Made by a program: the position numbers and the translations under genes. Below, piece by piece: positions 1,842 to 3,569 of a stretch of 6,116 nucleotides of DNA (the stretch's first letter is position 1; each line of letters starts with the position of its first letter). The stretch comes from a virus (lineage: Duplodnaviria; Heunggongvirae; Uroviricota; Caudoviricetes). The stretch covers positions 1 to 6,116 of IMG/VR virus record IMGVR_UViG_2695420403_000002. One strand, given 5' to 3'. A model generated the notes under the pieces. The model worked only from the letters and a program-made list of their open reading frames with translations, made no database searches and was not told the DNA's origin.

Positions 1842-2207
1842 ATGCGTGATATTCAGATGATACTTGAACGTTGGGGAGCATGGGCTGCGAGTGATAACTC
1901 TGGTGTTGATTATTCACCTATAGCTGCTGGGTTTAAGGGACTTCTTCCCTATACCAGCAAGAAACGCTTGGCTTGTTCGGATAGTGATGCATTAATTATT
2001 GAAGGTTGTCTTGCTCGTCTAAAGCAAAAAAGACCTTATGAGCATTCGCTTCTTGTGGCACATTATTTATACAGAATATCCAAGCGTAAGATTGCAAAGG
2101 CGCGTGGAAAGGATGAGAAATTGATACGTATAGAAATACAGTTAGCCGAAGGATTTATTGATGGCTGCCTTTCCATGCTAGATCTAACATTAGATTTGGA
2201 CGTTTAA
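1842..2207 (+). CDS. Late-gene antiterminator Q (Phage_antitermQ / QuuQ-like)
   Basis: Translation MRDIQMILERWGAWAASDN...GVDYS matches the N-terminal signature I recall for Q-family antiterminators such as E. coli QuuQ. Preferred start is ATG 1842 with GGAG at 1831-1834; the track's 1827 start is a TTG with no better ribosome-binding site. About 38% GC in a sampled 60-nt line. Confidence 0.65.
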   Translation: MRDIQMILERWGAWAASDNSGVDYSPIAAGFKGLLPYTSKKRLACSDSDALIIEGCLARLKQKRPYEHSLLVAHYLYRISKRKIAKARGKDEKLIRIEIQLAEGFIDGCLSMLDLTLDLDV

Positions 2208-2212
2208 TAAAA

Positions 2213-2233
2213 TACGCCCCATGCAGGGGCGTA
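2213..2233. terminator. Bidirectional intrinsic terminator between convergent Q and KAP NTPase genes
   Basis: Perfect 8-bp stem TACGCCCC (2213-2220) / GGGGCGTA (2226-2233) with 5-nt loop ATGCA. Flanked by AATAAAA upstream and TTATTTA downstream, so either strand has a U-rich 3' tail. Lies in the 30-nt gap between the Q stop (2207) and the KAP stop (2238-2240). Confidence 0.6.
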
Positions 2234-2237
2234 TTAT

Positions 2238-3569
2238 TTACTGAATGAATGACATTTGATTGATATATTTTATCAATAACTCTCTGGGTGTAGTACTCCA
2301 AAAATTTAGGTGGTCATAATCAGTATAAACTTTGGTGAATCTTTTTAGTTCTTCATCACTTTTAGGAGCAAATCGCTCATTAAGAGTAATACTGTCTTTA
2401 ATTATTCCAAAGAATACAATTGATATTTTAGGGATTTTCGAACTCATCTCATAAGAATAAGGTATCTCTTTTATTTTAAGCAGGTCTGCTAAATAAGATA
2501 TAGATTCAGCGGTAATTTCGTGTTTTAGTTTTTCCTTGTCACCAAAGCAATGTATGAAGACAGCTACGACAAAGATCATATTTATAAAACGATCACTACT
2601 GTTGTCTTCATTGTCGTTTAACAGTTGAAAAATGTTAAGATTGCGTGAAAATGTTTGTGTTTCACGTAATGATAAGTTGGTTCGTTGAATTAAATCACGG
2701 ATAAAATAACCTGATAAGCTATTGATTTCATTTAATGATCTTGTTTTTTCTACAAGGTAATTCCAATATATAACAGAGGCTTTACATACGTCGTGACCAT
2801 TTATCAAACATGTATCTGGAAGCGTGATGGTATATTTTATAAACTTGTCAAGATACTTTTGTGAGTTAATACTATAACCATAAATATGATTTATCGATGC
2901 TCTTAATTGTTCTGTGTTTGTAACTAAAATAAAAAAGACATTATTGATGTCAAAAATGTGTTTTATTGTTTCAATGACATTTGTTGAAAAACTCGGCTTA
3001 CATCGATCTAATTCATCAATTATAATTACTATCTTTTGATTTTCTGAAATACTTTCGATGCAAGATTTAAGTGAATTTATGTTTTTCTCTGATTCCATAT
3101 GGTCTTCAAGCAAACTTTCAATAGTCCCATCTATTGCTGCATTGCTTGCTTTCTTCATCGCATCTTGGAATTCTTCGGCAACTTCACTAGCCTCCTGTCG
3201 TAAAAACCAACCTGCACCAGCTTTTAGTACAGTTTTTAAACCAAATCGAATTGCAGGAAGAGACCTCTTAATGAAGTGTTGTTTTTCTTCCTCAGGCAAA
3301 ATGCTGGCAATTGCAGAGGTTATGAGAAGTAATGGAGATTCTGCATGATCCCCTTTAAAGGCATCAATATAAACAACTTTAGATTCGGGTTCTTGCTCAA
3401 TAATGAGATTTTTCAGTTTGATACTAAATTCTGATTTCCCTGTTCCCCATGCGCCATCTATTACCAGTGGTGAAATGTCTGCCTCTGGTTTTAGCAACTT
3501 GATGATATTTTCAGCGATGTTTCTTCGTTGGAACTCGTCACGTTCAGTGAACGATAGTGTATCTAACAT
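2238..3569 (-). CDS. KAP-family P-loop NTPase, candidate phage-exclusion / abortive-infection protein
   Basis: 443 aa. Walker A GAWGTGKS (residues 39-46, nt 3432-3455). Walker B with the KAP signature IIIDELDRC (residues 182-190, nt 3000-3026), followed by FFILVTNTEQL. N-terminal FQRRNIAENIIKLL precedes the P-loop as in KAP NTPases. AGGAG lies 16 nt upstream of the ATG on the minus strand. About 28-30% GC in sampled lines versus about 57% in a sampled line of the DUF968 gene. Confidence 0.8.
   Translation of the reverse strand: MLDTLSFTERDEFQRRNIAENIIKLLKPEADISPLVIDGAWGTGKSEFSIKLKNLIIEQEPESKVVYIDAFKGDHAESPLLLITSAIASILPEEEKQHFIKRSLPAIRFGLKTVLKAGAGWFLRQEASEVAEEFQDAMKKASNAAIDGTIESLLEDHMESEKNINSLKSCIESISENQKIVIIIDELDRCKPSFSTNVIETIKHIFDINNVFFILVTNTEQLRASINHIYGYSINSQKYLDKFIKYTITLPDTCLINGHDVCKASVIYWNYLVEKTRSLNEINSLSGYFIRDLIQRTNLSLRETQTFSRNLNIFQLLNDNEDNSSDRFINMIFVVAVFIHCFGDKEKLKHEITAESISYLADLLKIKEIPYSYEMSSKIPKISIVFFGIIKDSITLNERFAPKSDEELKRFTKVYTDYDHLNFWSTTPRELLIKYINQMSFIQ

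Follow-up and report, generated by a model that had tools for sequence, protein, structure and literature searches.

A defence gene carried by a prophage has to guard the lysogen and yet must not impair the prophage's own lytic growth and, to our knowledge, an arrangement that allows both is known for few systems only. The question of how this can be achieved is raised by a 6,116-nucleotide stretch of the viral record IMGVR_UViG_2695420403_000002 (positions 1 to 6,116 of that record; hereafter the window). It comes from a lambdoid prophage of SfV/SfII/e14 type, in which the gene for a KAP-family P-loop NTPase, a candidate anti-phage defence protein, converges with the gene for the antiterminator Q. 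An initial annotation of the window had proposed that, on induction, termination-resistant early transcription of the N type crosses the hairpin between the two genes, continues through KAP and silences the defence gene by antisense transcription. Our analysis points elsewhere: KAP is probably an insulated moron that is expressed in the lysogen and occupies a slot, locked for orientation, that separates Q from the late promoter, sharing a two-way terminator hairpin with Q. The parts of the locus that come first in this argument are as follows.

1842-2207, + strand: gene for antiterminator Q, 121 aa from the ATG at 1842 (ORF 1827/1842-2207; PF06530, phrog_79).
2211-2235, both strands: terminator-like hairpin common to Q and KAP (10-bp stem, 5-nt loop, T-rich tails).
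2238-3569, - strand: gene for the KAP-family P-loop NTPase, 443 aa, candidate anti-phage defence (PF07693, PADLOC).
3570-3625, - strand: cassette-specific region upstream of KAP, delimited by alignment of KAP-bearing loci.
2208-3625, - strand: the whole cargo cassette, consisting of hairpin, KAP and upstream region (homology break, GC content, empty-site relatives).

We read the segment 2208-3625 as a cargo cassette placed between Q and Q's promoter. The segment is 1.4 kb long and has a GC content of about 33%, compared with 51-58% in the flanking phage genes. The Q type of the window also occurs in phages cdtI, PhiR40_1 and SfII, where different reverse-strand genes come after it; aligned with these phages, the window loses homology at the Q stop codon and regains it near 3626, where a conserved block begins. 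Empty sites exist as well: in the related loci L147, L140, L162 and L050 this block starts 37-46 nt past the Q stop codon and nothing lies between. Thus, two of the hallmarks of a moron, site polymorphism among related phages and deviant base composition, are present. As for transcription signals of its own, the cassette has a terminator-like hairpin and a predicted KAP promoter.

On its right side, the cassette borders on the elements that would respond to Q, followed by the first of the lysis genes.

3637-3645, palindromic and hence listed without strand: GCGGTCCGC, candidate Q-binding element, the type of which tracks the Q allele.
3657-3662, + strand: -10-like hexamer TAATCT of a putative Q-dependent late promoter (PR'-like), with invariant TAnnnT.
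3663-3692, + strand: conserved initially transcribed block GTTAAGAGTGGTTACTTCGCCACACAGCTT, recognized by comparison with relatives.
3693-3722, + strand: intrinsic terminator (tR'-like), AAACCCGC...GCGGGTTT and then a T run (terminator scan, folding).
3867-4193, + strand: gene for a lambda-family holin, the first late (lysis) gene (PF05106, 6.6e-25; phrog_126).

We read 3626-3722 as a PR'-qut-tR' module, and the order of its parts is that of the canonical Q cassette (bioRxiv 10.1101/651190). The TAnnnT hexamer is invariant in all 49 distinct variants of the block, the three inner bases being variable. The palindrome occurs as GCGGTCCGC together with Q proteins at least 59% identical to that of the window and as GCGTACGC or GCGCTACGC together with Q proteins that are 41-58% identical to it. 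Because its type tracks the Q allele in this way, we regard 3637-3645 as a candidate binding element of a biochemically unstudied Q family. Assignment of the window protein to the Q antiterminators is clear, as it matches Phage_antitermQ over its full length in Pfam (PF06530, 2.3e-51) and phrog_79 in PHROGs and has 47% identity with QuuD of E. coli K-12; to Q21 structures there is a distant match only (6p18, E = 0.04). The 30-nt leader at 3663-3692 is nearly invariant among relatives and probably carries pause or Q-loading signals. An intrinsic terminator was found between late promoter and lysis genes by scan and folding (3693-3714 plus T run), and the lysis genes come after it. Most of the relatives compared have a hairpin and T run at the same place, the exceptions being L100, where it is absent, and L029 and L066, where it is not evident.

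The leader also contains the imperfect inverted repeats GTGG...CCAC and TTAAG...CTTAA. Compensatory changes were seen in two relatives (TTAGG/CCTAA in L164 and TGATAAG/CTTATCA in L100), and the pairs are broken in others. An RNA hairpin in the late leader was considered and set aside: the variants give at most two compensatory changes along with several breaks, and we claim no structure here. An Rfam scan of the whole window at E values up to 1 yielded no match; neither the junction hairpin of Q and KAP nor the late block corresponds to an RNA family described so far.

The slot itself was surveyed by searching the block against 165 fetched loci containing a Q relative. It was found downstream of Q in 82 loci, and in these, clustering at 30% identity sorts the contents of the gap between the two into about 20 unrelated types of cassette. 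Eighteen of the 20 types are wholly on the reverse strand, one has a doubtful 89-aa + strand ORF and one is mixed. The gene adjacent to Q is reverse in 19 of them, for which a one-sided binomial test gives about 2e-5 if the types are independent. The mixed type, L078, is the sole clear exception to the reverse rule: positions 6522-9141 of this locus form a 2.7-kb compound insert, the first gene of which (338 aa, + strand) matches the N-terminus of the PADLOC Aga_REase model. L066 was dismissed as a forward exception, because its + strand ORF merely shadows a TIR-TM homologue encoded in reverse. The survey took in another 79 loci, from Yersinia, Serratia, Xenorhabdus, Erwinia and others, whose Q genes are only 50-85% identical; in 60 of these, reverse genes begin right after the Q stop codon. 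To the right of the tR'-like terminator, genes are mostly forward, and cargo found there in forward orientation includes a DNA methyltransferase gene. Many relatives (L003, L004, L025 and others) have a forward ORF of about 75 aa together with a DNA methyltransferase gene of about 350 aa between terminator and holin gene; the pair is positioned 50-1500 nt downstream of the block. PADLOC matches among the slot cassettes comprise PDC-S20, PDC-M53A/B, PDC-M68A/HNH effector, PDC-S42, TIR-TM and PDC-S49. Judged by these comparisons, the slot is a hotspot for cargo, much of it defence-like, in which orientation is locked, and the conserved reverse orientation argues that transcriptional context matters.

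The same pattern could in principle be a relic of neutral descent, if a single ancestral insertion happened to be in reverse and the cassettes were later swapped via the conserved flanks. The 3' end of Q and the late block could support such exchange, and remote homology may link several of the cassette families. From cassette to cassette, however, hairpins, promoter regions and proteins are wholly different, and the pattern is also seen in Yersinia, Serratia, Xenorhabdus and Erwinia, with Q genes of only 50-60% identity. Moreover, neutral descent does not fit well with the mostly forward cargo right of the terminator, nor with the P4 hotspot, in which cargo is reported to occur in either orientation (PMC9122126). 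Of the accounts weighed here, we hold it to be the least probable.

We then turn to the junction between Q and KAP. The tail-to-tail geometry described in the initial annotation was confirmed by the ORF list and Pfam (Q ends at 2207, KAP at 2238, stop codons 30 nt apart), and so was the single two-way terminator-like hairpin between the genes, with its perfect 10-bp stem and T-rich tails on both strands. The stem consists of AATACGCCCC at 2211-2220 and GGGGCGTATT at 2226-2235, has six G-C pairs out of ten and encloses a loop of 5 nt. Folding gave -17.5 kcal/mol (z = -4.7) for the + strand and -18.3 kcal/mol (z = -4.8) for the - strand, and none of 200 shuffles was as stable on either strand. 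The stretch that comes after the final G-C pair reads TATTATTTA on the + strand (6/9 T) and TATTTTATT on the - strand (7/9 T). "Bidirectional terminator-like hairpin" appears to be a fair label for 2211-2235. The simple terminator scan of the window did not list this hairpin because the T-run rule of the scan is stricter. The core CGCCCC...GGGGCG recurs at the same position in the KAP cassette of L052 (63% protein identity), where loop and flanks are different, and given this recurrence the junction hairpin would seem to go beyond chance.

Junction hairpins are near-universal in the slot. A clear GC-rich hairpin is present at the Q/cargo junction in 23 of 31 cassette representatives, with a T-rich tail in the direction of Q transcription in 16 of these 23, and empty sites are without one. 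This distribution suggests insulation rather than designed read-through. We therefore favour a model, as yet drawn from sequence comparison, in which KAP would be an autonomous cargo cassette inserted backwards into a dedicated slot between Q and a Q-responsive late module composed of candidate Q-binding palindrome, -10 hexamer, conserved leader and tR' terminator. The hairpin at 2211-2235 would have arrived with the cassette. It would most likely end the KAP transcript and, in addition, unmodified early-rightward transcription just past Q, and would insulate the two converging units from each other. KAP would then belong to neither lytic unit, being not co-transcribed with Q and lying upstream of, and pointing away from, the Q-antiterminated late operon. 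From this position and orientation it follows that KAP could be expressed from its own promoter in the lysogen and receive no boost in lytic growth. What the comparisons show is the anatomy of the locus, the edges of the cassette, the rule of orientation, the empty sites and the frequency of junction hairpins; promoter activity, termination in either direction, lysogenic expression and a role in defence are inferred from these.

The symmetry of the convergent layout also invites the reverse idea, namely that leakage of the KAP transcript through the hairpin yields RNA antisense to Q, which damps accidental Q expression and thereby stabilizes lysogeny. In lambda, the PaQ antisense transcript is a precedent, and in most loci the cargo directly abuts the Q stop codon. 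The - strand T tract is nevertheless the better of the two (7/9), which means that KAP transcripts should mostly stop before Q, and phages with empty sites manage without cargo. A role of this kind is, in our view, very improbable.

Whether early transcripts could run the other way, through the hairpin and into KAP, depends on the properties of the rightward early operon. Q is its last gene and is preceded in the window by two others.

18-827, + strand: KilA-N gene, the first of three rightward early operon genes in the window.
829-1824, + strand: DUF968/HNH gene, in the rightward early operon before Q.

The initial annotation took it as an established principle that such early transcripts of lambdoid phages are antitermination-competent (N-type). 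This does not carry over to the present phage lineage. SfII, SfV and SfIV are reported to lack N, cII and cIII (SfIV genome paper, PMC3851460). The immunity region falls outside the window, and N and nut were searched for in relatives. Among those early proteins of the intact relative L001 (E. coli WS0115A) that were scanned against PHROGs there was no N, and the annotations of cdtI and PhiR40_1 list none. At the head of the leftward operon of L001 stands a gene for an acidic protein of 91 aa without arginine-rich motif that belongs to phrog_3195 (unknown function). A search for boxA in the vicinity of cro and cI of L001 was negative, with no systematic boxB search having been made. The rightward operon of L001 contains no strong intrinsic terminators before Q, so antitermination is not obviously needed there. 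Without processive antitermination, in turn, the junction hairpin should stop most Q-operon transcripts. In the immunity region of L001 (7225-7290, 7980-8060) we also observed that the repressor gene is succeeded by a strong terminator and then by a leftward promoter close to consensus; GGTACA motifs, which recur at both of the early promoters, are likely operators.

The prophage copy in the window is moreover a defective one. In alignments, window positions 1-4263 match 12001-16260 of L001 and window positions 4260-6116 match 25606-27462. About 9.3 kb have thus been lost at a junction located at 4260-4263. The missing segment starts around lysozyme codon 22 and extends to the tail-terminator gene, and endolysin, spanins, terminase, portal and head genes have gone with it. 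What remains is an in-between product:

4197-4550, + strand: deletion-made fusion ORF in which the first approximately 22 lysozyme codons are joined to the 3' end of the tail-terminator gene (alignment to L001, Pfam, PHROGs).

The near-identical viral contig L006 has the same deletion junction. Owing to the loss of the lysozyme-to-tail segment, this copy is incapable of a productive lytic cycle. The same KAP cassette is, however, also present in intact relatives.

These findings bear directly on the proposal that N-type, termination-resistant early transcription crosses hairpin and KAP on induction and so silences the defence gene. The convergent geometry on which it builds is real, the imperfect T tract of the + strand makes some read-through likely and the reverse orientation is kept across unrelated cargo. 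Furthermore, lambda-type relatives with the same Q-cargo layout (DLP12/PA-2 type) may, we presume, encode N. On the other hand, no N or nut site was found in the relatives searched from the lineage of the window, the early operon of intact L001 has no strong terminators that would require antitermination, most cassettes bring a predicted terminator in the direction of Q transcription, and the copy at hand is defective. Q-modified late transcription is of no help either, as its start is on the right-hand side of KAP and its direction is away from the gene. The closest precedent is TaiEcA of phi80, the level of which dropped on Q overexpression; after mitomycin C, however, the Tai protein was not lowered and remained constant (PMC11364771). 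Antisense shut-off is thus a plausible and not a new idea, having been proposed and partly tested for TaiEcA in phi80 with mixed experimental support. For the lineage studied here it is likewise plausible, and neither new nor supported. What stands of the original interpretation is the geometry, the hairpin and a plausible defence gene; what is not supported is the N-type principle, processive read-through of the hairpin and a lytic cycle of this copy. All in all, we consider antisense silencing by N-type transcription unlikely. Antisense damping of KAP on induction is possible only by way of a leaking hairpin and would be a side effect rather than a demonstrated function.

The signals upstream of KAP bring up a further way in which induction might affect the gene. 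We infer that the KAP promoter must lie within 3570-3625. For its -10, the best candidate is the hexamer TATTAT (- strand, 3610-3605), and a matching -35 at about 3629-3634 would overlap the -35 of the late promoter at 3632-3637. Two hits of the promoter scan on the - strand (3598-3570 and 3585-3556) were rejected as KAP promoter, being too near to the KAP ATG or overlapping it. No more than 87 bp separate the ATG of KAP from the late -10, the predicted -35 elements overlap and the divergent arrangement is common to every slot cassette. During active late transcription, a polymerase paused at the late promoter and Q bound to the palindrome could then occlude the back-to-back KAP promoter. Such competition presupposes two promoters that are both predicted from sequence only. 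Besides, PR'-type promoters are constitutively active even in lysogens, as in lambda, and occupancy may therefore change little on induction, and divergent transcription can also stimulate a neighbouring promoter via supercoiling. We judge promoter competition to be quite improbable. More broadly, the lock on orientation could constitute a built-in self-immunity switch, with cargo that is expressed from its own promoter in the lysogen and turned down in lytic growth by hairpin leak, by late-promoter occupancy or by both; this we regard as unlikely.

As regards the KAP protein, Pfam identifies a KAP_NTPase domain (PF07693, 1.2e-70). Among PADLOC models, PDC-S20 is matched over the full length (2.1e-176), and PifA (9.7e-18) and QatA (2.3e-13) are matched by the NTPase domain only. 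Walker A (GAWGTGKS, residues 39-46) and Walker B (IVIIIDE, residues 180-186) are intact. Membrane helices in or near the NTPase domain are typical of many KAP proteins; a crude test gave no clear membrane segment in the protein from the window, with a maximal 19-residue hydropathy of 1.45. Values for pN/pS of 0.18-0.29 against relatives of 88-95% identity indicate a maintained gene under purifying selection, and the ORF is intact in the window. KAP NTPases with C-terminal regions of unknown function protect Enterococcus from phages (PMC13552941). The designation as a defence gene in the initial annotation is plausible in the light of the PDC-S20 and PifA matches and the label is reasonable, with the restriction that PDC-S20 is itself only a candidate system.

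Some further observations concern the KAP gene. In the closest relatives, L006 and L007, it is disrupted (at about 6390-7730 of either locus): L006 has two ORFs of 113 and 280 aa, a split that stems from a 1-nt length difference, and in L007 the gene is truncated to 214 aa. The middle of the gene (2926-3048) is very AT-rich, with about 26% GC, and contains several strong promoter-like matches on both strands that agree with the consensus in 10 of 12 positions. This region could yield spurious or internal transcripts and may attract H-NS. On the antisense strand of KAP, Rho-loading (C-rich, G-poor) stretches were looked for; C exceeds G only in 3000-3300, which is uninformative.

Several points weigh against an insulated moron with a role in defence. 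The disruption of KAP in L006 and L007 implies that the gene is dispensable in some hosts, and its defence role is putative as long as it leans on a candidate system. A residues break up the + strand T tract of the junction hairpin and read-through could thus be substantial. The -35 of the putative late promoter (TTAACG) is weak and separated by a 19-bp spacer. Finally, the orientation rule could partly stem from shared descent of the cassettes and not from independent selection.

Beyond the window, the spot between Q and the late promoter takes many unrelated cassettes across Enterobacterales, and for several of these there are matches to defence models, be they candidate or known. A simple rule for the discovery of defence candidates can be derived from this: genes in reverse orientation that are flanked by a small Q gene and the conserved late block deserve attention. 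The slot provides a defined and testable case for transcriptional context governing moron expression, and a candidate Q-binding element and a late promoter are now proposed for a Q family that is biochemically unstudied. A literature search retrieved nothing specific on PDC-S20 or on a defence hotspot between Q and the late promoter; its coverage was incomplete and novelty is not proven by it.

Finally, we compared the locus with known systems. KAP shares the P-loop domain and a C-terminal region of unknown function with the KAP defence proteins, i.e. PifA of the F plasmid, PDC-S20 and the KAP proteins of Enterococcus and gut bacteria. It differs from EF_KAP, which has membrane helices, in having no clear ones, and from PifA in that the two align over the NTPase domain only. 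As read here, the late module would have the same order of parts and the same logic as the canonical Q cassettes of lambda, 82 and 21, in which Q is followed by PR' with Q-binding and pause elements, tR' and the late genes. In the canonical cassette the promoter comes directly after Q, whereas in the window 1.4 kb of reverse cargo lie between; the empty-site relatives do match the canonical arrangement. A further difference is that Q21 binds a direct repeat and the candidate element in the window is a palindrome.

The most similar layout is that of DLP12 of E. coli K-12, where quuD, a Q gene of the same family, is followed by reverse cargo (nmpC), by the same block and terminator and by the holin gene essD. 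The block is located at about 5700-5780 of L166 (E. coli K-12 MG1655 571500-579500), upstream of essD. The cargo is not a KAP NTPase but the porin gene nmpC, disrupted by IS5 in K-12, and the gap from Q to cargo is 190 nt instead of the 30 nt in the window. We take the lc porin gene of phage PA-2 to be a counterpart of the quuD-nmpC-essD layout. The lysis operon of DLP12 is reported to be under control of a Q-type antiterminator (PMC7918800). With phage morons in general, the cassette of the window has in common a low GC content, presence/absence polymorphism and a predicted terminator of its own. The region from Q to the lysis genes of SfIV has indeed been called a moron (PMC3851460); that paper does not describe the precise slot upstream of the late promoter or the near-absolute reverse rule.

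A further parallel to KAP, with the same proposed logic of shut-off by opposing transcription, is the "noncontiguous operon" of TaiEcA/AtiEcA in phi80. Like KAP, taiEcA is opposed to lytic transcription, and in phi80 the defence gene is expressed in the lysogen. It is directed against the Q-controlled late operon, and its authors proposed that it is switched off in the lytic cycle (PMC11364771). In contrast to KAP, it resides inside the Q-antiterminated late operon, so that termination-resistant polymerase certainly crosses it. KAP itself precedes the late promoter, and what is directed at it is only the end of the early operon, from which a predicted terminator screens it.

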